Virus record (IMG/VR): IMGVR_UViG_3300037468_000183
Location: 32,001-96,000 of that record
DNA from: a virus
Strand: one strand, 5' to 3'
Length of the DNA stretch: 64,000 nucleotides
Shown here: piece by piece, positions 1 to 35,222 of the stretch
How the letters are laid out: each line of letters opens with the position of its first letter
Numbering within the stretch: position 1 is the stretch's first letter
Position numbers and translations under genes: made by a program
The notes under the pieces: model-generated
Seen by the model: only the letters and a program-made list of their open reading frames with translations
What the model was told of the DNA's origin: nothing
The model's database searches: none

Positions 1-1708
1 CGATGGTACGCTCCTGCCGGGTTTCCCGCCCGATGGCGCACATGCCGCGCGCTTCCCAACTGAGCCGGAATTGCAGGGCCGTCTCAGTGATACCATCTGG
101 TCATCGCCCGCGCTGGGCGATTTAGACCGCGACGGTTTTCTGGAAATCGTCATCGGCAGTGACGAGGGCAATCGACCACCGGGCTATAGCTGCCCCTATC
201 GCCTGCCTCCCAATTGGCGGCCCGACTACTGCGGCGGCGCGCTCTACGTGCTGGATCGCTTTGGCCGCTTTTTGCCGGGTTTCCCGAAATATGTTCTCGA
301 TATCATCGCGTCTTCGCCCGCGCTGGTGGATTTGGACGGCGACGACTGGCTGGACATTGTCGTGGGCACGGGGCCTTTTTATTCTGACAACTCCCCCAAC
401 TATCCCGCCAGCGGCTTCCGCGTGTATGTCTGGGATCATCTCGGCAATGATCTTCCGGGCTGGGAGGGCGGTAAGCTCGTCGGCGGCCCTACGCCAGCGT
501 CACCAAGCATTGGCGACCTGGACGGCGATGGCGAGCCCGAAATAGTCATCGCAACCTATGATCCAGAGCGTAAGCTGTACGCCTGGCATGTTGACGGTGC
601 GCTATTGCAGGGCTTCCCGATGGCGCCAACCTTCAATGGCGTAACTTATGCTAGTTTCGACACGCCTGCGAATTTCGTCTTGGCGGATTACAACGGCGAC
701 GGCAGGCAGGAAATCTTTTTCAGCACCGGCTGGCTGGTGACGGTCGTGGATGGTAACGGCAAGCAGCTTACCAGCACGGGTTATGGCAGTCCCCTACCAT
801 CCTACATGTCCAACGGCTCGCTGATCAATAATCCCGCCATTGGTGACCTGCGCCATGATGGGCAGTTGGCATTGATCGCCACTAACAGCCAGGTGACCGT
901 TTGGGATTTACCAGGTGCTGGCCGGGCAGCCGCCTGGCCGCTCTTTCGCAACAACGCACCACGCATGGGGAGTCTTGGCACAATCATACCTCTGCCCATC
1001 GTCGCCCATAGCGCACGTGGTCTCGTGGAACGCTTCTACCTGCATGTTTTACGGCGCGCACCGGACCAAGCGGGCATGGATACCTGGACCAATGCGTTGC
1101 TGGATCGCGCCATGAGCGGCGCTGATTTGGCACGCGCCTTTGTCCTCAGTTCTGAATTTGGCGACAGCAACACCACCAATGCTGATTTCCTAACCATCAT
1201 ATATCGCGCATTCTTCGACCGCGTGCCGGATGCTGGCGGTTACAACGTCTGGCTCAGCGCGCTCAACAACGGACTGCCGCGCGTCGAGATGCTGGACGGC
1301 TTTATCCGTTCGCGCGAATTTGCTGAGCTATGCGACAGCTACGGCATCCGCGCCAACACAACGCACCAGGACAAGCTGCGCAGTTTCGTGACGCGCCTCT
1401 ATCGCGAAGTCTTGGGACGCGCACCGGATGCCGCGGGGTTGGCGCTGTGGGCTATGGGCAACCATACGGGTGGAGAGATGGTGCGCGGTTTCGTGCTCAG
1501 CCAGGAGTTCGGCAAGCGCGCATTCAGCGATGAGCAATTCGTGACCATGCTGTATCGCGCACTCCTCAACCGCGTACCGGATAGCGGAGGCTATGACTAC
1601 TGGCTCGCCAATCTCCGCGGCGGCATGAGTCGCACGCGCGTGCTGGAAAACTTTATCGGTTCGGCGGAATTTACCGAACTATGCAAGAGCTACGGCATCG
1701 CGCCCTAA
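1..1708 (+). CDS. FG-GAP/VCBS-repeat beta-propeller protein with C-terminal DUF4214-like repeats (3' part; 5' part probably at 63672-64000)
   Basis: Frame is open from position 2 (DGTLLPGFPP...). Repeated SSPAxxDLDxDGxxEIV motifs; C-terminal LYxxxLxRxPDxxGxxxW...FxxSxEF repeats. Confidence 0.8.
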   Translation, partial: DGTLLPGFPPDGAHAARFPTEPELQGRLSDTIWSSPALGDLDRDGFLEIVIGSDEGNRPPGYSCPYRLPPNWRPDYCGGALYVLDRFGRFLPGFPKYVLDIIASSPALVDLDGDDWLDIVVGTGPFYSDNSPNYPASGFRVYVWDHLGNDLPGWEGGKLVGGPTPASPSIGDLDGDGEPEIVIATYDPERKLYAWHVDGALLQGFPMAPTFNGVTYASFDTPANFVLADYNGDGRQEIFFSTGWLVTVVDGNGKQLTSTGYGSPLPSYMSNGSLINNPAIGDLRHDGQLALIATNSQVTVWDLPGAGRAAAWPLFRNNAPRMGSLGTIIPLPIVAHSARGLVERFYLHVLRRAPDQAGMDTWTNALLDRAMSGADLARAFVLSSEFGDSNTTNADFLTIIYRAFFDRVPDAGGYNVWLSALNNGLPRVEMLDGFIRSREFAELCDSYGIRANTTHQDKLRSFVTRLYREVLGRAPDAAGLALWAMGNHTGGEMVRGFVLSQEFGKRAFSDEQFVTMLYRALLNRVPDSGGYDYWLANLRGGMSRTRVLENFIGSAEFTELCKSYGIAP

Positions 1709-1778
1709 TGGAAGGAGGGCCTATGCACTGAACCGAACTTGACGACGGGCAGGCTAATATCATGTTAGGGGGCAAATC

Positions 1779-1985
1779 GTGGGTACACTTCTGGAGCAAA
1801 TCGCGGCGATGGTCGCAACGTTGAACGAGGTCAAGACGTTGTGCGAGGGGATTGTCACAGCGTCAGCGGCACAGGAGACGGACTACAACGCGGCGGAGGC
1901 GGCACAACAGCAAGCCGGTGTTTCGTCGGCGGCGGTCGTGCTTCTGGCGCAACAGGTGATCGCGAAGATCGGGGCCGTCACGTAG
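1779..1985 (+). CDS. small Ala/Gln-rich helical protein
   Basis: GTG start after AGGGGG; ends just before a strong hairpin. Confidence 0.6.
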   Translation: MGTLLEQIAAMVATLNEVKTLCEGIVTASAAQETDYNAAEAAQQQAGVSSAAVVLLAQQVIAKIGAVT

Positions 1986-2002
1986 GACGGCATGCTTCAA
2001 GT

Positions 2003-2039
2003 AAGGACAGCTTTGACTGCCGTAGTCAAAGCTGTCCTT
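2003..2039. terminator. bidirectional hairpin between convergent arms
   Basis: 16-bp perfect inverted repeat AAGGACAGCTTTGACT/AGTCAAAGCTGTCCTT at the strand switch. Confidence 0.75.
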
Positions 2040-2052
2040 GCGAGCGACGAGT

Positions 2053-2517
2053 TTACTTGCTTCTGTAGTAGGCTCCGAACCACTCTAGCCAATGTGCAAA
2101 TGCCTGTTGCTGAGCTGTGCTAGGATAGGTACGTTGAGGCAGTTGAAACTTCAGAAACCAGGCAACTGCAAGTGCAATCGTAGCTGTCCATGCGTTGGCG
2201 ATTCCAACGTCTGCCGCCCAATCGCAACAGAAGTCGAAGTCAGTTGCGCAGACGTCGCTGAGGTCGAACGATTTCCGGAGCAATCGCAAGCTGCAGGTTC
2301 CGCCACCAGAGATGCTACCACCTGTGCCAACGGCAATCAGGCACTCCTCTTTTGACTCCCCGTCACCCACCATGACCTTGTATCGCGTTCCGTCACCGGG
2401 TTGTACGACCAACAACTTCGCGTTGCCAGAGAAACAAACTGTTTGCTGTGTCATTAGTTCAGACTCCCGAAGCGGATTGCCAGGCATCAGGATCGAGTAC
2501 GTGACGAAGTAGGCCAT
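2053..2517 (-). CDS. hypothetical protein (lower GC)
   Basis: ATG preceded by AGGAGG on the minus strand. Confidence 0.65.
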   Translation of the reverse strand: MAYFVTYSILMPGNPLRESELMTQQTVCFSGNAKLLVVQPGDGTRYKVMVGDGESKEECLIAVGTGGSISGGGTCSLRLLRKSFDLSDVCATDFDFCCDWAADVGIANAWTATIALAVAWFLKFQLPQRTYPSTAQQQAFAHWLEWFGAYYRSK

Positions 2518-2534
2518 TGTTCCTCCTGGGAAAA

Positions 2535-2550
2535 TGTTTCACGTGAAACA
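2535..2550. promoter_or_regulatory. parS: parS centromere site (chromosomal ParB consensus)
   Basis: Exact TGTTTCACGTGAAACA palindrome, intergenic. Confidence 0.85.
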
Positions 2551-2560
2551 TGCGCGGCGC

Positions 2561-3400
2561 TCAGTCCTCCGTCGCGTCGAGCGGCATCTGCACGGCGCGC
2601 TCCGACTCGTGCGGGAATAGCGGCGCTTGCAGTTGCGCCCGTCCGACACGCTCCCGCGTCAGTGCGATGTACTCAGCGGCAATGTCGATGCCGATAGCCC
2701 GGCGTCCCAACGTAACCGCCATTTTCAGCGTAGTGCCCGATCCGCACATAGGATCAAGCACCACGTCGCCGGGATTGCTCCAGGAGAGGATGTGATCGCG
2801 CGCCAGGGCTTCGGGGAAGATCGCAGGGTGATTTGCTGCGTCAGGATCAGAATAGCCGTTCGTTCCGTGTGATAGGATGTCCCATACGTTATCCTTCACG
2901 CGCATTCCGCCCCCGATTCTGACATTAAGAACTTCTTGGGTGCCTCTTATTTTTGATCCTACGACAAAACCACCATGCCCAGTCGATTTTACTTTTATCA
3001 GATTGGCGGTGGTAGGAGACTCCTTTGACATGATAAACATATACTCAAAAACTGATGCGTAACGGACAGTTTCAGGGAACTGGGGAGCACTCCGGCGATA
3101 GATCATCGTATCGTGAAGGTTGAAGCCCAGGCCCATGAACCCAAGCGCCTGCCGGAAGCTCGTGCCCGTCTCGCTGCCGTTGACCGTCGCATCGGCAACG
3201 ACCCACACGACCACGCCGCCCGGCTTGGTGACGCGCCACAGTTGCGCGGCGATGGCCTCGAAGTCGAAGGTGTAACCGCGGTATTCGCGAAGTCCGTCAT
3301 ACGGAGGAGAAGTCACTGTTAGATCAATCGAGCCGTCTGGAATGTGCGCCGCCATGACAGCAGCGCACTCTCCGGTATACAGCGTCACGTCATTGCTCAT
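2561..3400 (-). CDS. DNA N4-C/N6-A methyltransferase (beta-class motif order)
   Basis: TSPPY motif, then HPAIFP and VLDPMCGSGTT; likely start MSNDVTL at 3400. Confidence 0.9.
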   Translation of the reverse strand: MSNDVTLYTGECAAVMAAHIPDGSIDLTVTSPPYDGLREYRGYTFDFEAIAAQLWRVTKPGGVVVWVVADATVNGSETGTSFRQALGFMGLGFNLHDTMIYRRSAPQFPETVRYASVFEYMFIMSKESPTTANLIKVKSTGHGGFVVGSKIRGTQEVLNVRIGGGMRVKDNVWDILSHGTNGYSDPDAANHPAIFPEALARDHILSWSNPGDVVLDPMCGSGTTLKMAVTLGRRAIGIDIAAEYIALTRERVGRAQLQAPLFPHESERAVQMPLDATED

Positions 3401-3483
3401 AGTTGCTTCCCACCGGCTCGCAGGTCGCCACGTCCACGAGCAGATCATCGCCGCCATTCTCCGGGCGGATGTACAGCCGGTGT

Positions 3484-3549
3484 CCGTCCGCGTGGCCGCA
3501 GATGACGACGGCGGGATGACCTTCGTGCAGGATGCGGTCGCCGGGTAGG
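3484..3549. repeat. 66-bp direct repeat, copy A (copy B at 4287-4352)
   Basis: 62/66 identity by manual alignment. Confidence 0.9.
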
Positions 3550-3564
3550 GGACGTGGCTTGCGC

Positions 3565-4218
3565 TCATGGCAAATATGGCCTCTTGGGAAGCTCTGACCA
3601 ATAGTCGCAGTCGGCAAGCCTTACGGGGCTGAAATCCTCCGGGTAGATCAGCACCATCTGGCGCGCCGGTGAATACACGCCGGGCCATACGACGCCGTTG
3701 TGGACTACGAGAATCGTGCCCGCCTGCTTGGGAGCTTCAACGGTGAGATTCCATTCGACCTTTACGATATTGCCGCTGTCCTGCTGATCCTCGATGCGTT
3801 CAAAAAGCATGATGTTCCCCCCATCTGCCATGATTCCGTCAATGTCGTCGCGAAACTGATGGATGGTTTCGATGAGTCGCTGCGCTGCTGAGCCAATCCA
3901 GCGATCATGCTCAGCGTCGTATACCGTCAAACCACGCTCGGCCAGGGCATCCAACAAGGTCGCCCGCAAGACTATAAATTCTTCGTCGCTCATTTTTAGC
4001 AGTCCTCCTACCTGTATTACATCATTCGGTCGATCACTTGGATTGCTCGGCCAGCACCAGCGGCGCGCTGCGAGAGCGTCCAACTCATCTCTGAGCCGCT
4101 GCCTTTCTACCTGCAAATTGCGGATGCACATGCTCCACAAGTGTGTCACCGGCACTATCTCGCCGGTATCCGAGTTCGTGGTTTCATCTAACATCTCATT
4201 GCAGTATTCACATCTCAT
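3565..4218 (-). CDS. hypothetical phage protein
   Basis: 217-aa ORF in the operon, N-terminal CxxC. Confidence 0.7.
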   Translation of the reverse strand: MRCEYCNEMLDETTNSDTGEIVPVTHLWSMCIRNLQVERQRLRDELDALAARRWCWPSNPSDRPNDVIQVGGLLKMSDEEFIVLRATLLDALAERGLTVYDAEHDRWIGSAAQRLIETIHQFRDDIDGIMADGGNIMLFERIEDQQDSGNIVKVEWNLTVEAPKQAGTILVVHNGVVWPGVYSPARQMVLIYPEDFSPVRLADCDYWSELPKRPYLP

Positions 4219-4275
4219 TGTCGCATTCCTCCAGCAGTTTCAGCAGTTGCCCACGGCGCACCTGTTTGTCGATGC

Positions 4276-4560
4276 TCAGCCGGAGGCCGTCCGCATGGCC
4301 GCAGATGACGACGGCAGGATGGCCTTCGTGCAGGATGCGGTCGCCGGGCAGGCGGAGACGTGTATGGTTGCGTCGTCATGTCTCAGGTTGATGTGCATTT
4401 TCCAACGCTGATTACCGCTTGGGTATGCGACCTTGACATTGGAGCCGTCAACCTCGATTACGGTTCCGGCCTTGTCTGTCCAATCGTTGACGATGGCCGA
4501 CAGGTCAAACACGTCATCACCGACCTTGAAACCATGATCTATTGGGTAGACAAATAACAT
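4276..4560 (-). CDS. small SH3/KOW-like hypothetical protein
   Basis: FKVGDDV...GTVIEVDG pattern; GAGGAG RBS. Confidence 0.55.
   Translation of the reverse strand: MLFVYPIDHGFKVGDDVFDLSAIVNDWTDKAGTVIEVDGSNVKVAYPSGNQRWKMHINLRHDDATIHVSACPATASCTKAILPSSSAAMRTASG
4287..4352. repeat. 66-bp direct repeat, copy B
   Basis: Matches 3484-3549. Confidence 0.9.
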
Positions 4561-5075
4561 GTTGCTCTCCTCGCTTCCTCTATGATGCGCTCGCACTGCG
4601 CGATACGCTCGGTATGATCAAGACTCAGGCATGGCCGATAGTATGCCTTGCGCGCCTTGCGTGGTCGCGGCGCGGGCAATGTTTCACGTGAAACATGCGG
4701 CGCGTCCGTGACACGCTCGCCGGGGGCCAGGATCACGACCGCGGAGATGGGCGCGTTATGGCAGTCGCCGGCGATGTGGATGCCGTGGCAGGAGGGACAA
4801 GGCGTGACATAGGACAATGGCCCAGGATCAGGAAGATCGAACTTGCGCCTTACCATCCTGTGAGTTTCCCAACTCACTTTAGACCATTCTCCGTGCGCCA
4901 GGGCATAGAGAACATTGTGCGATACGCCCTTGTCTTCTGCCAAAGCGCGCCATGATCGCGAATGCTTATAAGCGACCTGGACGGCCATTCGCGTGAGGTC
5001 TAACTCGGACATGACAAAGTCTGTTTCTGGAAAGAAACAAGGACTGGCGGTATCGTGCAGGGCATCCTGTGACAT
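4539..5075 (-). CDS. HTH plus Zn-ribbon putative DNA-binding protein
   Basis: SWRALAEDKGVSHNVLYALAHG helix-turn-helix-like segment; CPSCHGIH; contains the parS-encoded VSRET. Confidence 0.6.
   Translation of the reverse strand: MSQDALHDTASPCFFPETDFVMSELDLTRMAVQVAYKHSRSWRALAEDKGVSHNVLYALAHGEWSKVSWETHRMVRRKFDLPDPGPLSYVTPCPSCHGIHIAGDCHNAPISAVVILAPGERVTDAPHVSRETLPAPRPRKARKAYYRPCLSLDHTERIAQCERIIEEARRATCYLSTQ
4680..4695. promoter_or_regulatory. parS: parS centromere site, second copy (intragenic)
   Basis: Exact TGTTTCACGTGAAACA; shares the 22-bp context AATGTTTCACGTGAAACATGCG with the first copy. Confidence 0.85.
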
Positions 5076-5079
5076 AGTT

Positions 5080-5817
5080 TTACTTTCCGGCGTTCCTGGA
5101 GTGACCGCCTCCGTATACCCAAACATGCCACTCCTTGAGCGGCACAGGAAGGAGCGCAACTTCCTCAAGCGTCATGATGGGAATAGCATTGGTGGCGTAC
5201 TTCCACTTATCCCATATCTCGATCTCCGCGTTATGCCGTAAGGTTTCGGCGTAGTTTGTCGCCCTGGTCGCAGCGGCCTTGTCGGCGCGTGACTGTGCTT
5301 CCTCTGGGGCGAGAGTCTTCGGTTTGTCAATCAAGTTGCGTCCGTTGCGCAGCAAGTCCTGGCGCGAATTGTAGCCGGCGTCCTCGACTATGTTGTGGCA
5401 CTTGCGGCAAAGCAGAGCGAGATTGTCCTCGTGATCCAAGCCACCATCGGCGCGCTTGATGACGTGATGCGGAGTCAGCATGTATTCGGTTCCGCATATC
5501 TCGCACTTTCCTTCGGCACGTCGGCGCACCTTTGCCTCAACACCACCGGGTAACAGCATTGTGGTTTTCATGTGCCTCTTCTCCTGTTCTGTTTTTGGCG
5601 GCATCATCTGACCGGCTATGAATTGCGTCATCTCGTTGACGGTTGCTGTTCGCTTGCGTTTCTCGTTGCGCAATGCGGCGATACTGCAAAGCAAGTTACC
5701 TGCTAGACTATCGAAGGATGCTAAATCGTGATCGTCAAAATCGTCAGGGGTTGCATGGCGCAACTTGTCAGCAGCGGAACGGAGTGCGGAAAACACGCAT
5801 GATGAGTTATCTTCCAC
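5080..5817 (-). CDS. HNH endonuclease-domain protein
   Basis: CEICG...HHVI.RADGG.D..DNL..LCRKCH; probable GTG start at 5817 after GAGGGA. Confidence 0.8.
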   Translation of the reverse strand: MEDNSSCVFSALRSAADKLRHATPDDFDDHDLASFDSLAGNLLCSIAALRNEKRKRTATVNEMTQFIAGQMMPPKTEQEKRHMKTTMLLPGGVEAKVRRRAEGKCEICGTEYMLTPHHVIKRADGGLDHEDNLALLCRKCHNIVEDAGYNSRQDLLRNGRNLIDKPKTLAPEEAQSRADKAAATRATNYAETLRHNAEIEIWDKWKYATNAIPIMTLEEVALLPVPLKEWHVWVYGGGHSRNAGK

Positions 5818-5947
5818 TTTGTCCCTCGGATAAACAAACGGGCCGCTCGGAGCGTTTCTTGTCGAGGGAAACGTGAGCGGCCCGCGGGAGTCCATCTCTG
5901 GACTATCCACCTATGTGATGCTCCCTACCGTTTCCCTCGACAGATAC

Positions 5948-8902: not shown

Positions 8903-9189
8903 GCGTCCTCCCTCGCTGCGTTCTCCGCAGCATTCGGCGCGAGCGCCGTCCGAATCACGTCACGCGCTTGCATCACGTTGACCGGCAGATATACGTGGTA
9001 TTGGCTGCTCTGCTCCAGCAATCGCTGCACGTGCTCTAGCGCCGTGCGCAGGCGCGCGTTCTCGGCTTGCGCCTCATTTCGGACCAGTCGATACTGCTTC
9101 GTCAGGACAAGCACGTATTGCAGGCGCTCGCCGGTCGATTGCAGATAGTCGCGCAGGCGGTCGTTCTCGGCTTGCAGATCGTCTGTCAT
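8899..9189 (-). CDS. coiled-coil phage protein
   Basis: LQAENDRLR and AENARLR repeats. Confidence 0.6.
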   Translation of the reverse strand: MTDDLQAENDRLRDYLQSTGERLQYVLVLTKQYRLVRNEAQAENARLRTALEHVQRLLEQSSQYHVYLPVNVMQARDVIRTALAPNAAENAAREDA

Positions 9190-11072
9190 GTGCGGGCCTC
9201 CGGTTTGCGAACAAACCATACATCCTCGTTCAGAATCGCCGCGTGCGGATTCTTCTCATTGGCGAGTCGGCGGAAAAAACTCACCTTGTCGCATTTGAGC
9301 GACTTGTCCTCACCGAGCAGCCCCAATTGCGCGCCGTGATCGGTCGTCTTCCAGGCCGTGACGTGGAGCAGCGGATCGAAGCCAACTGATTCACACAGCG
9401 CCAACCACTGCTCCCCGAAGGGGACGCGCTGCTTGTTGCGCACGAAGTCGCCAGTGATCCAGGCCGCCACTGCGCCAGGCTTGAGCACGGCGTAGGTCTG
9501 GGCGACGATCTCGCGCGCGGCAGTCCAGAACGTGTCTGCCCGCAATGCGCCGACTTGCCCATCTGTGTCGCCGTAATTCGACTGAAACATAGCAGCGCAT
9601 CCAATGTTGGTAGGTGAAACGAATACATCCGGGCGCTTTGTCGTAAACTCACCTTTGGCGTATCGTTCGGCCTTACGTTGGCGGGCCGAATCATCATTGA
9701 TCCCTGTATTGACGCTCGCCTCATACGGCGGACTGCTCACCGTCGCATCGAAGCCGTTGCCCGCTGGCATGGCGCCGAGTTGGCCGGGGGTGGCGCCGTA
9801 GCGTGCGCCCAGGGCCTTGCGCTGCTCCCAGCCGGCCGTCCCGCGAACGAAGTTGCCGTCAGCGTCGCGCAGTCCGCTCGCGCCTTCGTCTCCGCCTGGC
9901 CCGCCGTCGATGCGCGTCTCGGAGTAGGGTGGACTCGAAACACACGCCGAATACCCCTGCATCGTCAACGCCTGCGAGTGCTGGCCGGGCTTGTTGCCGG
10001 TGAGCTTGTCCGTGTCGATGCCGTTGCCGCCGTGCACGGTGTTGGCGCTGTAGGGGGGCGAACCAACTGCCGCCGAGTAGTCGCCGGGTGGCATCTGCTC
10101 CAGTTGCCCCGGTGTTGCGCCATAGCCAGGACGACGCGCTGTGCCTTCGGCGGCCCGGCGCGCGTCTTCAGCGGCATCCAAGCGCACGCTCTGTCCATCG
10201 TGACCAGTCGTGCCCGCATACGGCGGACTCGCAATCGCGCCATCGTAGCGCAGCGCCGCGTCGAAGTCGCCGGGTGGCAGCGCGCCCAGTTGGCCGGGCG
10301 AGGTGCCGTAGGACGCCACTTGCATTGTTCTTCCGGGGCGCGCTTCGGCATTGAATGCTGCATCTGTGCTTTGTAAGCTCCCCTGAAACGGCGGCGACGA
10401 CACGACCGCATCCGCTTCCGCCACGATCTCCGCCAGCCGGCGCGAGTCGCCTTGCAGCACGCGCGCCGTGCCATAGCCGGGGAAGTGCGGCGCGTAGCGG
10501 GCGCGCCATGTCTCCAGGTTGCCGGGCTGATATTCGGCGCAAGGCACGGCGCGCTTGGCTTCCAACTGGCGCAGATGTGCCTGAGCTACAGTCAATTCGC
10601 TGGCGTAGTTCTCGCGCTCAGCATCCGTGATAGGGCGGGGTGGTTCCCAAGTGGCATCGGTTTCGTCATACCTGCCGGACGATTGGATGCCCGTTTTTAG
10701 GATGGCCTCCAGGTCGCGCACGTGTTGGCGCTGGCGGTCAAGCTCGGCTTGGTTCTTGGCGCACGCCGGGCACAGATGCAAAGTGTTGCAGGTGTAGCCG
10801 CGGCACAAGTCAACGAACTTCGGCTCCAATTCCATGCCCGTCCAGTGCAGGCCATACAACGCGGCGTGGAAGGCGCAGCCGCCGATGCCGCCGAACGGAT
10901 CAACAACTTTGTCACCAGGGGCCAGCCAACCTTCGGCCAGCATGTGGCGATAGATGCGCTCGGCCAGGCCGAAAGATATCTTTGCCGGATGCGCGTAGGC
11001 TTCAGCGGCCAACGGTGCGCTCTGCCACGAACCATCATAGCAGCCGAACCACTCAGTTTGCATTGGGGCCAT
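9186..11072 (-). CDS. DNA amino-methyltransferase-like protein with five tandem SPP(Y/F) modules
   Basis: HPAK, VVDPFGGIG, GMELEPKF, QGDSRRL, then 5x SPP(Y/F) and VLKPG. Confidence 0.85.
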   Translation of the reverse strand: MAPMQTEWFGCYDGSWQSAPLAAEAYAHPAKISFGLAERIYRHMLAEGWLAPGDKVVDPFGGIGGCAFHAALYGLHWTGMELEPKFVDLCRGYTCNTLHLCPACAKNQAELDRQRQHVRDLEAILKTGIQSSGRYDETDATWEPPRPITDAERENYASELTVAQAHLRQLEAKRAVPCAEYQPGNLETWRARYAPHFPGYGTARVLQGDSRRLAEIVAEADAVVSSPPFQGSLQSTDAAFNAEARPGRTMQVASYGTSPGQLGALPPGDFDAALRYDGAIASPPYAGTTGHDGQSVRLDAAEDARRAAEGTARRPGYGATPGQLEQMPPGDYSAAVGSPPYSANTVHGGNGIDTDKLTGNKPGQHSQALTMQGYSACVSSPPYSETRIDGGPGGDEGASGLRDADGNFVRGTAGWEQRKALGARYGATPGQLGAMPAGNGFDATVSSPPYEASVNTGINDDSARQRKAERYAKGEFTTKRPDVFVSPTNIGCAAMFQSNYGDTDGQVGALRADTFWTAAREIVAQTYAVLKPGAVAAWITGDFVRNKQRVPFGEQWLALCESVGFDPLLHVTAWKTTDHGAQLGLLGEDKSLKCDKVSFFRRLANEKNPHAAILNEDVWFVRKPEART

Positions 11073-17614: not shown

Positions 17615-18808
17615 TCACTTGCCGACGATCTCTTTGCCGGCAACCTTCGCCTCGGCGCGCTTCTCCAGCGCCACGCAGACGGCTTCCAGGTTCTCGGTCG
17701 TTACCTTCCGGAAGTTCTCGGCGTAGACCGCACGCAGAAGGTGCGGCATGTCGGCCTTGCCGTCCTTGCGATAGTACGGGAAGACCTGGACAAAGACCTC
17801 GCACCACTGCGCGAAGGCGTGGGCGGCCTTGCCTTCCATGTCCGCCATCTGGCCTCCGCCATGCGGCTTCGGGGCGGCGCTGCGCTCCACGGTGGCGCTC
17901 GTCATGGCGTGAAACTCCGCCTCCGCATCAGACAACGGCGGCTCGGTCGCGGGCGGTGGCTTGGACGCCGCGACGGGTGGCGGCTCCTCCTCGGCCAGGT
18001 CTTCGTCGTCGTCATCGTAGTCATCGTCATCGTCCGCGTCGTCAACGTGGCGGGCCGTCAGTTGCAACGGTTGGCCCGCGGCCAATGCCATCTGTTCCTC
18101 GGCCTCGACCTGCATCCGTGCCAACACCCACTCGGCGGCGGGCACGATCTTGACCAGGTCCTTGATGGTGCGATTGCGCCGGCCCGCAGCCTTATCCTCG
18201 TCCTTCCAGGCTGGCGTCGAGATGGATTGCTTGACGCGTAGCACGTTGAACAGGATGCCGTTGAGATGGCCGGCTTTGGTTTCGGCGTCCAGCAGACAGG
18301 CAGTGATGGAGACCAGATCATTAATGCTGTGTGTCTCCATCGTCACGAAGCCGACGAAGCCCGCCCGGATCAACTGCGGCACGATCATGCTCAGGCGCCC
18401 GACTTGCTTACAGCCGGGGTTGTCCTTCGCGCGCGTCTTGGTTCCGGTGTAGTACGGACACGGCCGTTCGCCATCGGCATAGTCGCCGTTGGCCGTGCGC
18501 CAGCGGTTCATTGTCTGACCGTCGCAACGATGCACCATACCGCCGTGGTCATATTCCTCAAACCACGTATTCCAATTCTGTTCCAGCGTCGCGAATGGCA
18601 GATAGGCCTCGATCAGCGCGGGCTTACCGCCGTATGCGGCATCGAAAGCGCGCTGCACATCCTGGCGTTCGCTCGTGAAACGCCAGTGATCCAGGTCGGG
18701 GCCGGGGCGCTTCGGGTCGGTCTTGGGGCCGCCCTTGCGGAGTTTGCCCAAGTCCGGGAACTTGGGCGTGATGTCCTGGCGTCTTGTCATGCCGACTATG
18801 GGTGACAT
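17615..18808 (-). CDS. Gp3-like (recombination directionality factor-like) phage recombination/replication protein
   Basis: FPDLGKLRKG...P.DLDHWRFT, HRCDG, CK.VGRL...P, T.S.N; acidic linker; GGAGGA RBS before 18808. Confidence 0.7.
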   Translation of the reverse strand: MSPIVGMTRRQDITPKFPDLGKLRKGGPKTDPKRPGPDLDHWRFTSERQDVQRAFDAAYGGKPALIEAYLPFATLEQNWNTWFEEYDHGGMVHRCDGQTMNRWRTANGDYADGERPCPYYTGTKTRAKDNPGCKQVGRLSMIVPQLIRAGFVGFVTMETHSINDLVSITACLLDAETKAGHLNGILFNVLRVKQSISTPAWKDEDKAAGRRNRTIKDLVKIVPAAEWVLARMQVEAEEQMALAAGQPLQLTARHVDDADDDDDYDDDDEDLAEEEPPPVAASKPPPATEPPLSDAEAEFHAMTSATVERSAAPKPHGGGQMADMEGKAAHAFAQWCEVFVQVFPYYRKDGKADMPHLLRAVYAENFRKVTTENLEAVCVALEKRAEAKVAGKEIVGK

Positions 18809-19476
18809 AAAAGTTCCTCCTCTGTATGCTCCTGTAACTTCTTGGCCTGCCACCTCGCGTTTGCCGCCGCGCTTTGCTTGGCCTTTCCATCCGGTGTAGC
18901 CAAGCGGACTTTGTGCGAGGCAGACATCTTGGCACGCGTCTCGGTGCTGTGTACGCGCCCCTTGATTGCAGCGCTGTGTTGGGCACGTGCCTCTGGATTG
19001 CTCATCTGAATTATTGCCGCGGCGCTTATCTTCTCGCGTGTCTCCGGGCTGACTACCTTGCCCCTCTGCGCCGCGCCTATCTTAGCGCGTGTTTCGGCAG
19101 TCTGCGTCCGCCCTCTCAGCATGGCGCGTATTTCGTCGCTATAGTGAACTCCCCTGCACGTCCTGGGGTGTGGAGCTATGTTATAACCATGCTCTCTGTC
19201 GTATGATCGTAACGTGTCCATCCAGTGTTGTTCGCGCTCGTCCAGCCGCGCCAAATCCTCGATGTGTTCCAGGACAATGATCTCGAAAGCCTCCCATCCG
19301 TACTTCGCAACGGCGCGATACAAAGGGTGCGGCTTCTTCCCGACCAAGCACCGATGTTGGTATATGCGCTCTCTGAGGCACTGCGCCTGACCCACGTACA
19401 CCTTGCCGCTTTCCACATGGAAGATGCCGTAGATGCCAGTAAACTTCCAGTCGCCCCAATACGCTTTCGGCATCAT
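18796..19476 (-). CDS. GIY-YIG homing endonuclease with NUMOD3-like repeats
   Basis: GIYGI...KVYVGQ...R...H...E..W...GYN; SxETRxKMS repeats. Confidence 0.9.
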   Translation of the reverse strand: MMPKAYWGDWKFTGIYGIFHVESGKVYVGQAQCLRERIYQHRCLVGKKPHPLYRAVAKYGWEAFEIIVLEHIEDLARLDEREQHWMDTLRSYDREHGYNIAPHPRTCRGVHYSDEIRAMLRGRTQTAETRAKIGAAQRGKVVSPETREKISAAAIIQMSNPEARAQHSAAIKGRVHSTETRAKMSASHKVRLATPDGKAKQSAAANARWQAKKLQEHTEEELLCHP

Positions 19477-23473: not shown

Positions 23474-23683
23474 ATGAGCGAAAACGAATATCTTACCGTG
23501 GATCAGGCGGCGGAGCGTGCCAACCGCCACGCGCAGACGATCAGGAATTGGGTACGCTCAGGCAAACTACCTGCCTTTCGCCTGGGGCAATCGTATTTAA
23601 TCCGGCCCGAAGACCTCGACGCAATGTATCAGCCGGTGCAGGTCAAGCCGGTGACGACCGTCGAGCCGGAGGTGGCGCCATGA
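23474..23683 (+). CDS. excisionase/HTH_17-type DNA-binding protein
   Basis: YLTVDQAAER...TIRNWVRSGKLPAFRLG.SYLI...DL. Confidence 0.9.
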   Translation: MSENEYLTVDQAAERANRHAQTIRNWVRSGKLPAFRLGQSYLIRPEDLDAMYQPVQVKPVTTVEPEVAP

Positions 23684-23979
23684 CCTGGCCTGCATCGGGC
23701 TGGACAACGCCGCTTGGCGAAACGTCGCCGCTGATTCATGGCGTCGTTCTGGCATTGCTGGCGCTGACGATCTGGATGTACGGCCATTATTACGTCTGGC
23801 CGGTCGTCGTGCGCATCGGACAACGCGTGCCACGGCCAACGCCGCGTATGCGCACGGCTCAGGTCGCGCCACAGCCAGCGGCGGCCGATGAGGTGGACGT
23901 AATGGCGGCTGATACTGAAACCGTAGCTCAGACGACGCGGCGCGGCAAATACAACATGGGATTCGACTGGGAGCGTTAG
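23680..23979 (+). CDS. small membrane protein
   Basis: ATGA coupling; one hydrophobic helix. Confidence 0.65.
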   Translation: MTWPASGWTTPLGETSPLIHGVVLALLALTIWMYGHYYVWPVVVRIGQRVPRPTPRMRTAQVAPQPAAADEVDVMAADTETVAQTTRRGKYNMGFDWER

Positions 23980-23982
23980 GCC

Positions 23983-25485
23983 ATGAGCGGTGGAAGGTTC
24001 GCACTTGCACTGGTGGCTGGCGGGGTCGTGATTGCCGTCTGCGTGATCGCGCTGAACTTTTTCGATCCACCGGCGCAGAGCGTGCGCGCCACGAGCGCGG
24101 CGTTGACCATCGCTGAGCAGCAGGCGCTCGCGCCGACCTGGATGGACGTCAAGCGCGGACTGCTGACAAGTGCGGGCATGGGTGGTTCGGTGCTGATCGT
24201 CTCGCTGTGCCTGGGCCTCTCGTTCCTGGTGCTACGCGAGCCCTTGCTCCTCCGCCATCACAAAGGTATCTTCCCCGCGTTCTTCACCATCCTCGGACTG
24301 CGCGCCAGCGACCCGCCCGGCAACCCGGAGGCGCACGCTGAGTATGCGCGTGTGGCTGGCGTGCAACGTCCGCTCGGTCGTCCGGCGTTGCCGCGGCCCG
24401 ACGCACAACTGGCGCTGCCCGCGCCCGATGATCTCACTGTCGAGCTTGATCCCGTCGAGGTCTTGGCTCCCGAACTGGATTCGCATCCGCACAAACTCAT
24501 CATTGCCGAGAGTCGCTTCGGCAAAACCAACTTGGCGTGGGCCATCATCCGGCGCTATCAAGCGGCGCTGCCGGATTGCGAGTTCCTGGTGCTGTCGATG
24601 ATCGAAAGCAAGTGGCCCGATCTGCAAGTCGCATCCACCGGCGCGCAGATGTTGGCGGCGATGACCGCCGTCGAGCAGGAATTGATCCGGCGCGACAATC
24701 TGCTGAAGCAACTCCGAATCACGGACGTGCACGAGAGTGACGTGCTGAACGCGTTCGCCGTGGTCTTCGATGAGGTCGAGACGACTTTCGAACTGATGTC
24801 CGGCGCACAGCGCACCGAGTTTCGGCGGCTGGTAACGCGCTACGTCAACCAAGCCGGCAACGTCAAAGGCGCGTTGATCTCGCTGTCGCAAACCGGCTCA
24901 CGCGACATTCTGCCGAAGTCGATCCTGGCGAATGCAGATTTGTATATCGGGCGTTGTGGCACCTACGTGCCGGCGTCGTTCTCGATCCAGGAACCGGTGC
25001 TCGTGAACGCGCTCAGCCGGGCTGAGAAGGGCCAGTGGTATTCGTATCGTCATCGGGCCTGGTTCACGGCTCCGCTGGTCAAACCGCCACATGATGTGCG
25101 GCTGTGGAGTGGCTGGAAGCCGACGCTGGAACTCACCGCCGATGGCGAGGCGGATGGCATGGGTGCCAATGATGCACCGGACGGCGCAGCCCTACCCCTA
25201 CTCCCTACTGACGGGGAGGGGGGGGTGTGGCCCGATTTCGGAGTAGGGGTAGGCGTAGGCGACAGTAGGGGATATACATTTGCCATCGATGAGACCTTCA
25301 AGCGGCGCGTTCTGGAGGTTTGGGATGGTCTGGAGAAGCCGAACTATACTGCCGTCCAGAAGATTATGTTTCCCGATCAGGAAGACGGCGGGGCGCACTG
25401 GAAGGCCATCAAGGCGGTCATCATCGCGCGCCGTGAGGTAGAGCGCCAGCGGCATCGCAAGCAATACCTGGAGGCAACAGCATGA
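23983..25485 (+). CDS. membrane-anchored FtsK/TraB-like P-loop ATPase
   Basis: Two N-terminal TM segments, Pro-rich linker, PHKLIIAESRFGKT (Walker A), ELIRR, VVFDE (Walker B), LSQ, small C-terminal domain. Confidence 0.65.
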   Translation: MSGGRFALALVAGGVVIAVCVIALNFFDPPAQSVRATSAALTIAEQQALAPTWMDVKRGLLTSAGMGGSVLIVSLCLGLSFLVLREPLLLRHHKGIFPAFFTILGLRASDPPGNPEAHAEYARVAGVQRPLGRPALPRPDAQLALPAPDDLTVELDPVEVLAPELDSHPHKLIIAESRFGKTNLAWAIIRRYQAALPDCEFLVLSMIESKWPDLQVASTGAQMLAAMTAVEQELIRRDNLLKQLRITDVHESDVLNAFAVVFDEVETTFELMSGAQRTEFRRLVTRYVNQAGNVKGALISLSQTGSRDILPKSILANADLYIGRCGTYVPASFSIQEPVLVNALSRAEKGQWYSYRHRAWFTAPLVKPPHDVRLWSGWKPTLELTADGEADGMGANDAPDGAALPLLPTDGEGGVWPDFGVGVGVGDSRGYTFAIDETFKRRVLEVWDGLEKPNYTAVQKIMFPDQEDGGAHWKAIKAVIIARREVERQRHRKQYLEATA

Positions 25486-29062: not shown

Positions 29063-29133
29063 AGCGGCAAAATCATAATGCGCAAAACTGGCCTATTGCG
29101 TTTTCGCGCATCCGGGTGTATGCTTGTGACGCC

Positions 29134-30489
29134 ATGAATCTAAGCGAGTTTCGTCCCGCACGAGTCAACGCAAATCGCCACACGGCGCGCGGCATCGGCG
29201 CGCTCGAAAAGAGCATCCAGTCAGACGGCTGGATCGGCGCGATGACCACCGCCGCCGATGGCGAGATGATCGCCGGCAGCGCCCGCATCGAGACGGCGGC
29301 GGGCGTGTTCGGCGTGGACGCGGAGCCGGTTGTCATCCACAGCGACGGCAAGCGGCCTATTGTTGTCATTCGCGATGACATCCCGAACGCGTCAACGAAG
29401 GTCGCGCAACGGCTGGCGCTGGCGGACAATCGCATTCACCAGCTTGACCTGGACTTCGACGTGCAGGTGCTCACCAGCTTCGATGCCGACGTGCTGGAAG
29501 GCTTGTGGACGGGCGACGAAATCAGCGACATGGGCCAGCAGTGGGCGGATGAGCAGAGCCGCAACGCCGAAGACCCCGGCGCGCAAGTGGACAAGGCGGA
29601 GGAACTGCAAGCCAAGTGGCACGTGCAACCCGGCGACCTGTGGGCGATGGGTGACCACCGTCTGCTGTGCGGAGATTGTCGGGAGCCTGCATCCTGGGTG
29701 CGCTTGCTTGCGGGCGTCAAGGCCAATGGCGTTTTCACATCCCCGCCTTATGCCGAGCAGCGCAAGGAGCAATACGGCGGGACACCAGCCGCCGAATACG
29801 TGGCATGGTGGGAAGCGGTGCAGGCCAACGTCAAGGCGCATCTCGCGCCCGATGGTTCGTTCTTCGTGAACATCAAGCCGCACTGCGCAGACGGCGAGCG
29901 TGTGCTGTACGTGTTTGATCTGGTGCTGGCGATGAAGCGGGAGTGGGGCTGGCGTTTCGTGGATGAGTTGTGTTGGACAAACCGGGGATTCCCTGGCGAG
30001 CCGCAAGACAGATTCCAGAACGCTTTTGAGCCGGTATATCACTTTTCGGATGGAAAAATCAAGTTTCGCCCAAAGGCCGTTTGGCATTCAAGCGATTCGG
30101 TTCCCGTACACAAGGCGGGGCAGAACTTCAGGCAATCCAATCGAGGAAACGGCTTTGAGAGTCCAGACGTAGAAAGCGGGATGGCCTACCCTCGCAATGT
30201 CCTGGATATCCCAAATGGCAATGGCGGAGATTCGCGACACGCTGCCGCCTTTCCAGTCGCGTTGCCTGACTTCTTCGTGCGCGCCTACTCGGACGCCGGC
30301 GACGTGTGGCTTGATCCGTTCTGCGGCAGTGGCACGACGATTGTCGCCGCGCACAACAACAAGCGGCGGGGATTCGGAATCGAGATGCTGCCGAAGTATT
30401 GCGCCGTGATCCTGGAACGCATCAGCGGCCTGGGGATTACGCCTGCACTGTTGAGCAATGGGGGAACTGTGGCCGATGGCGGGCGCTGA
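29134..30489 (+). CDS. ParB/Srx-like N-terminal domain fused to a DNA amino-methyltransferase
   Basis: SI..DGW...IAGSAR...ALADNR; GDLW.MGDHRLLCGD; TSPPY; LDPFCGSGTT; TTGCGT-17-TATGCT just upstream. Confidence 0.85.
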   Translation: MNLSEFRPARVNANRHTARGIGALEKSIQSDGWIGAMTTAADGEMIAGSARIETAAGVFGVDAEPVVIHSDGKRPIVVIRDDIPNASTKVAQRLALADNRIHQLDLDFDVQVLTSFDADVLEGLWTGDEISDMGQQWADEQSRNAEDPGAQVDKAEELQAKWHVQPGDLWAMGDHRLLCGDCREPASWVRLLAGVKANGVFTSPPYAEQRKEQYGGTPAAEYVAWWEAVQANVKAHLAPDGSFFVNIKPHCADGERVLYVFDLVLAMKREWGWRFVDELCWTNRGFPGEPQDRFQNAFEPVYHFSDGKIKFRPKAVWHSSDSVPVHKAGQNFRQSNRGNGFESPDVESGMAYPRNVLDIPNGNGGDSRHAAAFPVALPDFFVRAYSDAGDVWLDPFCGSGTTIVAAHNNKRRGFGIEMLPKYCAVILERISGLGITPALLSNGGTVADGGR

Positions 30490-32039: not shown

Positions 32040-33544
32040 TGGCTGATGACGTGCGGCTGAGTTTCCTGTCATGGTTGGCGCAGCAGGACACCGAGCGCGA
32101 GCAGGGTTATCGCTTGTATCGCGAGTATTATGATGGCGACCACGATACGCAACTCACCGACCGGATGCGCAAGTACTTGCAAGTCAAATCGCACGTCGAG
32201 TTTCGCGCGAATTATTGTCCCATCGTCGTGGACGCGCTGGCGGAGCGTCTGAACATCACTGGCATAACGGCCGAGGATCAATCGGCGGTGCTGTGGGGCT
32301 GGTGGACAGCGGGCCGCCTCGATGGCTTGCAGGTGGTCTTGCACACGGCGGCGCCACGCGACGGGGACGCTTATGTGCTCGTGGAATGGGACGCCGAAAC
32401 CCTGACACCCAAGTTCTTCTTCGAGCCGGCTTTCGACGGCGGCGATGGCGTGCAGGTGGTTTATGACGACGCGACCAACACGCCAAGCATGGCCATCAAG
32501 CGTTGGCGCGCCAAGTCGGGGCCGGGGGCGGGCTATCTGCGGCGCATCAACGTCTACTACCCGGATCGCGTCGAAAAGTATGTGTCAAGCGACAAAGACC
32601 AGAGCGGCCAGTGGCAGAAATTCAAGGAGGACAACGAAGCTTGGCCGATGCCGTGGCTGCGCGCGGACGGGCGGCCGATGGGCATTCCGATTGTCCACTA
32701 CAAGAACCGCGATCAAGGCACGAACTATGGGCAGTCCGAACTCAAGGACGTGCTGCCGCTCCAGAACGCGCTGAACAAAGCTGTCATCGACCTGCTGGCC
32801 GCGGCGGATACCACCGCCTTCCGCATTTATTGGATGCTTGGCGACGATCCGTCTGCCGTGTCCGTGTCACCCGGCTCATGGGTCTACAGCACCAAGCCGC
32901 CATCGGGCGACGACGCGGCCAGCCTAGGCTATTTCCCCGGCGAAGACCTTGCCAATCTGATCGGCCTCAAAGACTCGCTCGCGATTGAGATTGCGCGAGT
33001 ATCCAGGACGCCGGTAAGCTACTTCCAGGTAAGCGGCCAACGGCCAGCCGAGGGCACGCTCAAACAGGAGGAGAGCGGTCTCGTCGGACGGGCACGTGCG
33101 CGCATGGTGTCATTCGGCAATGCCTGGGAGGACGCCTTCGGCATTGCGCGCAAGATGTGGAATGAATGGGGCGACGGCGATCCGCTCGATGAAGCCGTGC
33201 CGATCACGATTGTTTGGAAGGATCCGGAAACGCGCAACGACAAGGCGCTGTTGGAAACGCTCAAAATCAAGGCTGATCTGGGCGTGCCGAAACAGCAGCT
33301 TTGGACAGAGATGGGCTACAGCGCCGACGAAATCGAGCATATGCAGGAGATGGTAGACGAGGAACAGTCCAGCCAGGCTGACCTGGGCGAGACGTTGCTG
33401 AACGCCTTCGAGAAAGCGCCACGCATGGCGGCGACGGGCCAGATGCCGCCACAGATGCCGGCGCAGGCGACCGAGATTGCGCAGGCCGAGCCGGAAGATG
33501 AGATGGACGGTGATGGCGGCGGGGTGCCGAGTGATGCCCGATAA
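32039..33544 (+). CDS. portal protein (SPP1 gp6-like)
   Basis: YYDGDH, NYC.IVVD..AERL, GDAY, G.SEL...LQ; position after terL. Confidence 0.9.
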   Translation: MADDVRLSFLSWLAQQDTEREQGYRLYREYYDGDHDTQLTDRMRKYLQVKSHVEFRANYCPIVVDALAERLNITGITAEDQSAVLWGWWTAGRLDGLQVVLHTAAPRDGDAYVLVEWDAETLTPKFFFEPAFDGGDGVQVVYDDATNTPSMAIKRWRAKSGPGAGYLRRINVYYPDRVEKYVSSDKDQSGQWQKFKEDNEAWPMPWLRADGRPMGIPIVHYKNRDQGTNYGQSELKDVLPLQNALNKAVIDLLAAADTTAFRIYWMLGDDPSAVSVSPGSWVYSTKPPSGDDAASLGYFPGEDLANLIGLKDSLAIEIARVSRTPVSYFQVSGQRPAEGTLKQEESGLVGRARARMVSFGNAWEDAFGIARKMWNEWGDGDPLDEAVPITIVWKDPETRNDKALLETLKIKADLGVPKQQLWTEMGYSADEIEHMQEMVDEEQSSQADLGETLLNAFEKAPRMAATGQMPPQMPAQATEIAQAEPEDEMDGDGGGVPSDAR

Positions 33545-35222
33545 CGTCACGCTTCTCCAGGGCGACTGCCGCGACGTGCTGCGCGAGATGGCGCGTCAGA
33601 ACGGCACAGGGCCGCGCTTCACGGCGCTTGTGACCGATCCGCCTGCGGGGATTTCGTTCATGGGAAAAGAGTGGGACAACCCCAATGGCGTTTCCCGCAC
33701 TGGTTCAGGCATCGGGCAGGAAGGCAAGGATGCCGATTATGACCGCTACGGCAAGGGTGCGATGCCCTACGGCTACAGCGGATCGAATGCCGGACGCAAT
33801 ATCACAGACCGAGAAGCCTTCATCGCAACCATGACCGAGATCGCCGCCCTCGCGCTCGACCTGTGTCTGCCCGGCGCTCATGCGCTCGTGTGGGCGCTGC
33901 CACGCACGTCGCACTGGACGGCGACGGCCTGGGAGAATGGCGGGTGGGAAGTCAGGGACAGGATTCGGTACGCATCCTCGAAGGACGCCAAAGTTGCCGC
34001 ATTTCTGGCATCGTTGACGGATGAGCAGCGCAAGGCGTTGGAGGTCATCTCTGACGATTCGGGAGTATCACATTGCTTCGGTTCTGGCTTCCCCAAGTCG
34101 CTCGACGTGAGCAAGGCACTCGACAAGGCCGCGGGCATGGAGCGGGAAGTGGTAGCGGGCCGAGGATGGCATCATTCAACGGGGCGCGGGAATGGGATGG
34201 CGGGAAATGCCGATGAATCATGGCCTAAGCCATACGAGGCGGGAGATGCGGCACGAGGCGAACCTATCACCGCCCCTGCGACCGCCCTGGCGCGCGAGTG
34301 GGCGGGCTACGGCTCGGCACTCAAGCCTGCCATCGAAGACTGGTGGCTGCTGCGCAAGCCGCTCGACGGGACGATCGCTGGCAATGCGGCAAAGCACGGC
34401 TGCGGGGCGTTGAATGTGGACGGATGCAGGGTGGAACTAGACGATGCTGCGAAGTCCATGCTTGGAAAGGCGAAACAGCGCACGAATAAGCCGAGCGGCA
34501 AAGGATTGCATCACGATCCTGATTCAACGGTTGAGCGCGAACGATTACAAGCCGAAATTGACACATTCAAAGCAAGCGGTCGCTTCCCCGCGCATCTCAT
34601 CACAGACGGCAGCGAGGAGGTGACGGCGTGCTTTCCGTCACCGCATGGAGCTGGCTTCAAGAGGAATCCATATGCGGACGGCAAGGGAGAAACCGGCATT
34701 TATGGCGCTTATGGCGGCGAAGGTGTTGGCGGTGCGAGAATAGGCGACACCGGCTCTGCGGCCCGCTTCTTCGCCGTCTGCCCGCCGGATGCCGATGCGC
34801 CACGGCTCGCGTACATCCCGAAGGCGAGCCGGCGCGAGCGCGAGGCGGGGTGCGATGGGTTGGAGTTTCATGGACGAAATGAGGTATACGGCGACGGATT
34901 CAACACGGCAACAAAGTGTGATCCGTCAATGCACACCACAGAAAGCGTAGAGGCGCGTCCGCAAGTGCGTAACGGACATCCCACGGTCAAGCCGCTTGCA
35001 CTTTGCAGATATCTGCTCACCCTGCTGCGCCAGCCGACCGTCAACCTCGTGCTTGATCCATTCATGGGTTCCGGTTCGACGGGCGTGGCGTGCGTGCAGC
35101 TTGGCATCCCGTTTGTGGGGATCGAACGCGATCCTGAGTATTTCGAGATCGCACGAAGGCGCATCGCACACGCGCAGGAGCAGATGGCGGCGCAACCGCT
35201 CGCGCAACTGGAACTGCTGTAA
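33534..35222 (+). CDS. DNA methyltransferase (DPPA variant)
   Basis: VTDPPAGISFMGKEWD, GSGFPKS, HPTVKP, LDPFMGSGST. Confidence 0.9.
   Translation: MPDNVTLLQGDCRDVLREMARQNGTGPRFTALVTDPPAGISFMGKEWDNPNGVSRTGSGIGQEGKDADYDRYGKGAMPYGYSGSNAGRNITDREAFIATMTEIAALALDLCLPGAHALVWALPRTSHWTATAWENGGWEVRDRIRYASSKDAKVAAFLASLTDEQRKALEVISDDSGVSHCFGSGFPKSLDVSKALDKAAGMEREVVAGRGWHHSTGRGNGMAGNADESWPKPYEAGDAARGEPITAPATALAREWAGYGSALKPAIEDWWLLRKPLDGTIAGNAAKHGCGALNVDGCRVELDDAAKSMLGKAKQRTNKPSGKGLHHDPDSTVERERLQAEIDTFKASGRFPAHLITDGSEEVTACFPSPHGAGFKRNPYADGKGETGIYGAYGGEGVGGARIGDTGSAARFFAVCPPDADAPRLAYIPKASRREREAGCDGLEFHGRNEVYGDGFNTATKCDPSMHTTESVEARPQVRNGHPTVKPLALCRYLLTLLRQPTVNLVLDPFMGSGSTGVACVQLGIPFVGIERDPEYFEIARRRIAHAQEQMAAQPLAQLELL

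Follow-up and report, generated by a model that had tools for sequence, protein, structure and literature searches.

Two exact copies of the bacterial chromosomal centromere parS, TGTTTCACGTGAAACA, are present at positions 2535-2550 (site A) and 4680-4695 (site B) of the window, by which we mean the whole 64,000-nucleotide stretch of viral DNA analysed here (bases 32001-96000 of the 104,080-bp IMG/VR record IMGVR_UViG_3300037468_000183, in the following called G000). The phages that carry these sites have no canonical ParB, no ParA and no integration enzyme, and for this reason we propose that they borrow the partition machinery of their host: the sites would be loading sites for the chromosomal ParB of the host, a cytidine triphosphate (CTP) clamp of the Spo0J type, and would serve to segregate a non-integrated genome in a non-lytic state. 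We give this reading a probability of about 0.55. That host ParB binds to the sites in some way, for whatever purpose, appears quite probable.

The pair of sites, 2.1 kb apart, had been noticed in an initial annotation of the window, and both were found again letter for letter. Besides A and B the window contains no further match to the 16-mer with up to two mismatches. The number of matches expected by chance is 0.03, and not one of 100 dinucleotide-preserving shuffles had two or more. Two additional exact copies are located outside the window, at 98089-98104 and 99388-99403 of G000, which brings the total to four; copies with one to three mismatches are absent from the whole record. The sequence is a 16-bp palindrome that matches the consensus of chromosomal parS, TGTTNCACGTGAAACA (PMC7022226), and is identical to that of the chromosomal sites. 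Since this parS is in use across most bacterial phyla (PMC7022226, where Livny 2007 is cited), the sites are likely to be of the host type.

G000 is not a single genome; two mosaic siphophages with different head modules are joined in it head to tail. The gene content of the record is periodic, and self-comparison pairs the region 30.3-39.8 kb with the region 94.6-104.1 kb, about 64 kb further on, through patches that are 86-94% identical. A full late module with Terminase_4, TerL, an HK97-type portal, an S78 protease and an HK97 capsid occupies 1-33.7 kb, and another one with Terminase_6C, an SPP1-type portal, a Mu-F-like protein, a Mu-gpT-like capsid and a tape measure is found at 55-98 kb. 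Common to the two late sets are tail-tip genes (29-58%), a gene for an 801-amino acid (aa) DUF4214/FG-GAP protein (90% identical) and two leftward early genes (about 87%), and nothing else. The unit from about 34.0 to 98.0 kb (roughly 64 kb) is flanked on both sides by homologous sequence and is therefore a whole genome unit; the rest of the record belongs to a second mosaic phage, different from the first and present only in part. The two may form a cointegrate, or they may have been joined into a chimera by the assembly through a shared 3.4-kb region; in Logan contigs of the probable source run both variants occur together at different depths. Where the initial annotation spoke of one phage, two different phage genomes have to be put in its place. 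The CheckV estimate for the record (95% complete, 104 kb) was set aside as misleading, because the record holds more than one genome.

Each of the two phages has a parS pair in the same place, one site at the arm junction beside the stop codon or the remnant of a DNA methyltransferase (MTase) gene and the other inside a small regulator-like open reading frame (ORF). Site A lies between two minus-strand genes, in a 43-bp spacer that separates the stop codon of the MTase gene (2561) from the ribosome-binding site (RBS) and ATG (2517) of a 154-aa ORF; the stop codon is 10 nt away from the site, and the RBS follows directly after it. The equivalent of site A in the second unit (G000 98089-98104) stands beside a terminator hairpin and what is left of the 3' end of the MTase gene, of which only the last ~45 codons are retained. 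Site B lies in frame within an ORF (site-B ORF), where it encodes H-VSRET, and corresponds to G000 99388-99403 in the second unit, in which the two sites are 1.3 kb apart. Both transcription arms run towards the sites. The initial annotation had drawn attention to a 22-bp context common to A and B (AA, the site, TGCG). This context is real, but it looks incidental, as it belongs at A to the spacer after the MTase stop codon and is coding at B. A segment of about 80-140 bp, which recurs 4-5 times with 86-95% identity both between the parS sites and around them, encodes a small domain with the motif DRILHEGHPAVVICGHADG.

The arrangement is not confined to one assembly: exact contigs from the runs of three studies span both sites, and a contig from run X1 bridges window positions 1297-3460 without a mismatch, covering the end of the late-arm gene, site A and the MTase gene. 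In variant contigs from sediment runs the homology begins exactly at 2535 and at 4677, so that the sites are conserved islands at mosaic borders. Parts of the window that lack contig cover in some runs were left out of the interpretation. A position at mosaic breakpoints is also what one would expect if the palindromes had no function of their own, being remnants of host DNA that was once captured, short conserved islands passed on when co-infecting phages recombine, or weak terminator hairpins. The stretch TTTT follows site A in two phages, in a third site A abuts a real terminator hairpin, and the patches of high identity shared by the two units make a recent exchange possible. Yet the flanks are phage genes and not host genes, site B is located within an ORF, and the terminator scan called neither site, on which ground a reading of the sites as terminators or promoters was rejected. 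A further objection to sites without function comes from the codons at site B.

Homologues of the site-B ORF were found 21 times in metagenomes, and the DNA of eight loci from JGI was read. IMG/VR yielded no relative of this ORF nor of its 269-aa neighbour, and the GTDB genomes yielded none of the ORF. In three of the relatives (L128, L129 and L130), whose ORF is 39-48% identical at the aa level, the in-ORF 16-mer is exact. L128 has in addition a second site, AGTTTCACGTGAAACA at position 3362, 2.2 kb downstream of the in-ORF site and again in the spacer between an MTase stop codon and an RBS. The layout is that of site A in the window: an MTase with the same C-terminus, then the site, then the RBS of a homologue of the 154-aa ORF with the same MAYFVTY start. 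The conservation in related phages by which the initial annotation had wished its idea to be judged is thus there for the in-ORF site, and the same search brought to light an integrase-bearing lineage without the in-ORF parS (see below).

The codons GTT TCA CGT GAA ACA TTG are identical in all five sequences (the two phage units and L128-L130). All parS codons end in A or T, in genomes whose GC content at third codon positions (GC3) is about 0.75, and with the codon usage of the record itself the choice of codons for VSRET has a p of about 9e-5 per lineage. The residue preceding the motif is H, N or D, the codon always ending in T and so supplying the first base of parS, and synonymous change of the ordinary kind is seen in the codons next to the motif. 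Where 6 or 30 residues are inserted, the motif is shifted relative to the conserved core of the protein and remains intact. In the AlphaFold model of the site-B ORF (mean predicted local distance difference test score, pLDDT, of 60.6; residues 50-115 at about 90), which was used solely for its confident helical domain and its low-confidence linker, the parS-encoded residues 158-163 fall into the linker (pLDDT <50), between a helical domain resembling a helix-turn-helix (HTH) and the C-terminus. The identical rare codons, the exchange of H, N and D with the T-ending codon kept, the insertions that spare the site and the low-confidence linker together argue that at site B selection acts on the DNA and not on the peptide. 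The codon signature within the ORF makes the evidence for selection at the DNA level unusually clear here. A site that stays exact amid diverged codons, with rare codons of its own and a variable residue before it, and that is moved by insertions and never broken, is hardly debris; the codon analysis already largely rules out that the palindromes are without function, and we regard such an origin as highly improbable.

That integrase, ParA and an HTH-bearing ParB are missing, as the initial annotation had gathered from the window, was borne out by a six-frame hidden Markov model (HMM) search of the full 104,080 bp. It detected no tyrosine integrase (PF00589), no resolvase or large serine recombinase (PF00239, PF07508), no rve transposase, no protelomerase and no ParA of the AAA_31 or CbiA type. 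An integrase in the part of the record beyond the window, which the annotation had reckoned with as a refutation, was thus not found either. For ParB_N (PF02195) there was no match over cut-off in the record, the best one (14.6 bits) being in an MTase outside the window, and tblastn with bacterial ParB against the record gave zero matches. By PF02195, AAA_31, CbiA and tblastn, then, a cognate parB or parA is not present on the same replicon. Within the record without detected integrase, a Gp3-like protein (window 17615-18853, minus strand) belongs to the recombination-directionality-factor family PF18897 (E 8e-23).

Somewhat more involved is the matter of a ParB-like domain at 29134, which the initial annotation had described as fused to an MTase and devoid of an HTH. 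The domain is recognised by PHROGs (phrog_620, 'ParB-like partition protein', E 1.4e-9) and not by Pfam at its thresholds; in this protein Pfam gave no match to ParB_N or to an HTH, not even when E values up to 10 were allowed. A second protein of this kind, g132, is encoded by the second unit 0.9 kb from its parS site B and shows, besides a ParB-like N-domain in PHROGs (Table 1), weak HTH-like signals at residues 112-156; in a PDB sequence search it matched MTases only. It could therefore be a phage protein, one of these ParB-N-like/MTase fusions or the product of the site-B ORF with its HTH and Zn-ribbon features, that reads the palindromes as operators, be it as a methylation target, as a regulatory site or as a boundary, and site A indeed always comes after an MTase gene or an MTase remnant. 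We nevertheless regard a phage-encoded reader as unlikely. The sites are letter-identical to the near-universal chromosomal parS that is read by the HTH of canonical ParB, and the negative PF02195 and tblastn results given above speak against a ParB of the phage. Fusions of a ParB fold with an N6/N4 MTase are common in phages, are non-canonical and lack the ParB HTH (PMC12704722). Moreover, the complete phage unit has no homologue of g132, the position of which is taken by an HNH gene, and still has both sites.

The use of a host centromere by a phage, called piracy in the initial annotation, is not a new idea. Phage phi29 has five parS of the host type, which are used via the host Spo0J for delivery of the genome into the spore (PMC2731898); for phi29 and Nf, as far as Meijer et al. 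2005 is reported in PMC2731898, entrapment in the spore depends on the host Spo0J, and the sites work together with Spo0A boxes. What remains of the earlier proposal is that recruitment of host ParB is the most economical reading of the sites and the missing genes; its novelty does not. In common with phi29, where a host ParB homologue is the reader, the phages described here have multiple chromosomal parS and lack ParA, ParB and integrase, so that they too carry several host-type sites with no ParB of their own, although ParB-N-like/MTase fusions are present. Whereas phi29 is a protein-primed podophage of about 19 kb from a sporulating Firmicute, they are siphophages from freshwater sediment with a GC content of about 60% (one unit ~64 kb), are unrelated to phi29 and have no known link to sporulation, and they have exactly two sites per genome, both at the arm junction and one of them coding.

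A second parallel is found in the cluster A actinophages, in which an integration cassette or parABS comes directly after the virion genes (PMC7157519). Like the RedRock type of this cluster, which is expected to give rise to an extrachromosomal prophage of low copy number, the phages of G000 have no integrase, and their centromere-like sites stand directly after the virion structure genes, behind the last late gene, where relatives have the integration cassette; the collinearity with cluster A is to be understood as an analogy. Phages of the RedRock type encode their own ParA and ParB and have their own parS composed of 8-bp direct repeats, whereas here parA and parB encoded by the phage are missing and the palindrome is that of the host chromosome. 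A third parallel is SGI1, which hijacks the parABS of IncC plasmids (PMC10954446). There, as here, a mobile element brings along only a cis site and uses the ParAB of another replicon for its inheritance; unlike here, the victim is a helper plasmid, and SGI1 is an integrative mobilisable island and not a phage. From the chromosomal sites themselves, which are grouped close to oriC next to parAB and from which the genes all point away, the sites of G000 differ in being orphan and viral and in having transcription converge on them. What is new in the present case is a further phage lineage, with two sites at the junction of convergent arms, one of them coding, in a position equivalent to that of an integrase; the principle is known.

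We infer ParB binding, ParA/SMC engagement and a non-lytic episomal state. In the mechanism that we envisage, the 16-bp palindromes would be loading sites for host ParB retained on the phage DNA by selection. ParB dimers would nucleate at the two sites and close into clamps, and a single partition complex would form at the meeting point of the two transcription arms. Through it the non-integrated phage genome would be tied to the origin-segregation system of the host and would be carried to the daughter cells in a non-lytic state, as a plasmid-like prophage or in a carrier or dormant form. Convergent transcription would confine the sliding ParB clamps to the neighbourhood of the centromere, since they would be swept towards it and not away from it. 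Lin and Grossman are reported to have found in 1998 that an unstable plasmid is stabilised by one chromosomal parS, in dependence on Spo0J/Soj. The recurrence of the sites at the same junction in two phages with unrelated head modules was counted in favour of host ParB as the reader.

Another line of comparison is offered by three contigs (L131-L133; on L131 the region 221-1018), which are fragments of one related lineage sharing the site-B ORF (45%), the Gp3-like gene (60% over 261 aa, the copy being on L132) and g69. On L131 a gene for a tyrosine integrase is found 1.3 kb from the ORF. In the contigs of this lineage, which are 3.8-5.6 kb long, there is no parS with up to two mismatches, and their gene order differs from that of the window phages. 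The lineage also has an MT-A70 MTase. The tyrosine integrase shows that the wider phage group includes temperate members, and the comparison would fit, without proving it, an exchange in which integration was given up for partition by a centromere that works in cis only. A more specific form of our proposal is that a bare pair of host centromeres now stands in for the integration or parABS cassette, the result being a plasmid-like prophage without partition genes that is segregated by the ParABS of the host. We put this forward tentatively and consider it somewhat unlikely as it stands. If this is true, there would be a minimal route to lysogeny in bacteria that do not sporulate, one that requires sites in cis only and is perhaps followed in many other viral contigs with parS.

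Host ParB might also be bound for the benefit of the lytic cycle, with no episomal prophage. The phage in its many replicating copies could titrate ParB away from the host origin, with disturbed segregation, SMC loading or replication control as the proposed effects, or it could recruit SMC/ParB to organise or position its replicating DNA. For replication the phage encodes an initiator, a DnaB-type helicase and a primase domain of its own, and no repressor or lysogeny marker was recognised in it; phi29, the sole proven case, is virulent, and other viral contigs with clusters of parS look lytic, examples being podophages that resemble phi29 and contigs in which the cluster lies between terS and terL. 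Two sites per genome, on the other hand, are a weak sink for ParB, and we know of no demonstrated benefit of ParB titration to a phage. Both the collinearity of the sites with integration and partition cassettes and the existence of an integrase-bearing relative without the in-ORF site fit maintenance better than lysis, and a purely lytic use of the sites appears to us rather unlikely.

Several points weigh against loading of host ParB for episomal maintenance. The converging arms are the opposite of the ori-proximal arrangement on chromosomes, and because both of them transcribe towards the sites, a zipping of arms of the SMC type is less plausible. The comparison with the integrase-bearing relative rests on a single group of contigs. 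The second phage unit is incomplete, so that the absence of genes from it applies to the available part only. Both phages encode ParB-N-like/MTase fusions, and it is the one with the weak HTH-like signals, g132, that is close to a site. The screen for XRE repressors gave no match over cut-off (best HTH_3, 11.5 bits), and the phages may be purely lytic. Finally, the only genome match is to a Phycisphaerae contig of discordant GC content.

The phage turns up again in metagenomes of sediment and freshwater sediment from several studies. The match just mentioned, the sole one among GTDB genomes, is to a 4.9-kb contig with a 64% identical tail gene, which was binned in a metagenome-assembled genome (MAG) of the Phycisphaerae. 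This MAG has an exact 16-mer and a copy with one mismatch 120-180 bp upstream of parB; its link to the phage is weakened by the GC mismatch. With a GC content of 0.60 in the contig against 0.49 in the parB region, the MAG was rejected as the host, and the phage-like contig (L136, JBFZBE010000014.1) is probably mis-binned with respect to the MAG sequences L137 and L139. The attempt at host assignment found no tRNAs, and a search of the protein atlas returned 'Viruses' as the only taxon. The portal is only 27% identical to portals of actinophages, and the Gp3-like gene had no match among cultured phages.

If host ParB does load at these sites, the borrowing of a chromosomal centromere would be a recurrent strategy independent of the phage lineage and not a peculiarity of phi29 and sporulation, and in predictions of phage lifestyle the finding of 'no integrase, no parAB' could not be equated with lytic any more. 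The sites would then also offer a cis-only stabiliser for vectors and mark a point of contact between phages and the segregation and SMC loading of their host. To the known instances the present one adds an integrase-bearing relative for comparison.

The features discussed are listed in Table 1 together with genes in their neighbourhood.

Table 1. Positions of the parS sites and of associated features (window numbering unless G000 is indicated)
Feature	Position	Strand	Description
parS site A	2535..2550	.	exact 16-bp chromosomal-type parS at the junction of two convergent transcription arms
parS site B	4680..4695	.	exact parS within coding sequence, minus-strand reading (H)VSRET
Copies of the recurring ~80-140-bp segment	3410-3548, 4271-4352; G000 98372-98510, 98525-98662, 99233-99373
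801-aa DUF4214/FG-GAP protein gene, 3' part	1..1708	+	last gene of the rightward (late) arm
154-aa ORF	2053..2517	-	annotated without function; last gene of the leftward arm, RBS right after site A
N6/N4 DNA methyltransferase	2561..3400	-	PF01555 E 2.5e-35; phrog_67 E 8e-55
ORF hosting site B	4539..5168	-	helical HTH-like N-domain, CxxC...C/H Zn-ribbon-like core, variable C-terminus
HNH endonuclease	5080..5910	-	adjoins the site-B ORF; PF01844 E 5e-10
ParB-N-like domain fused to N6/N4 MTase	29116..30489	+	PF01555 residues 205-432; phrog_620 residues 6-157
g132, 446 aa	G000 100301-101641 (outside the window; L007:6301-7641)	-	PHROGs ParB-like N-domain E 6e-6, N6/N4 MTase motif region
N6/N4-type MTase genes/fusions	2561-3400, 9186-11072, 29116-30489, 33477-35222; G000 2323-3279, 100301-101641

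The true start of the site-B ORF probably is M32, at about 5075. The ORF has no family match in Pfam or PHROGs; in Pfam its family gives hints of an HTH and a Zn-ribbon, all of them sub-threshold. Apart from the initiator, helicase and primase domain (PriCT_2) already mentioned and the Gp3-like protein, the leftward arm encodes a resolvase and a GIY-YIG endonuclease. At the start of the rightward arm (window 23474-25485) a Xis/MerR-like HTH protein (phrog_66, E 5e-9) comes first and after it a protein of 500 aa that has only a weak FtsK/SpoIIIE-like match (E 3e-4). With at least six genes or fusions for DNA methyltransferases of the N6/N4 type, the record has a methylation load that is unusually high for phages this large.

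A scan of IMG/VR for the exact 16-mer gave at least 119 stretches. Among the matches listed, 26 contain at least two exact copies no more than a few kb apart, and in only one, which has a single site, does tblastn detect a ParB gene close by. Four of the contigs (L014, L021, L028 and L113) are of phi29-like podophages (Phi29_MCP, Gp16 ATPase, GC content about 0.4) with 3-4 exact parS each and are the metagenomic counterpart of the published phi29 case. On two others, both with no ParB gene found on the locus, five exact parS are crowded into about 0.8-0.9 kb beside the gene for the large terminase (L029:2657-3444 and L068:10535-11462); on L029 the cluster is placed between the small- and large-terminase genes.

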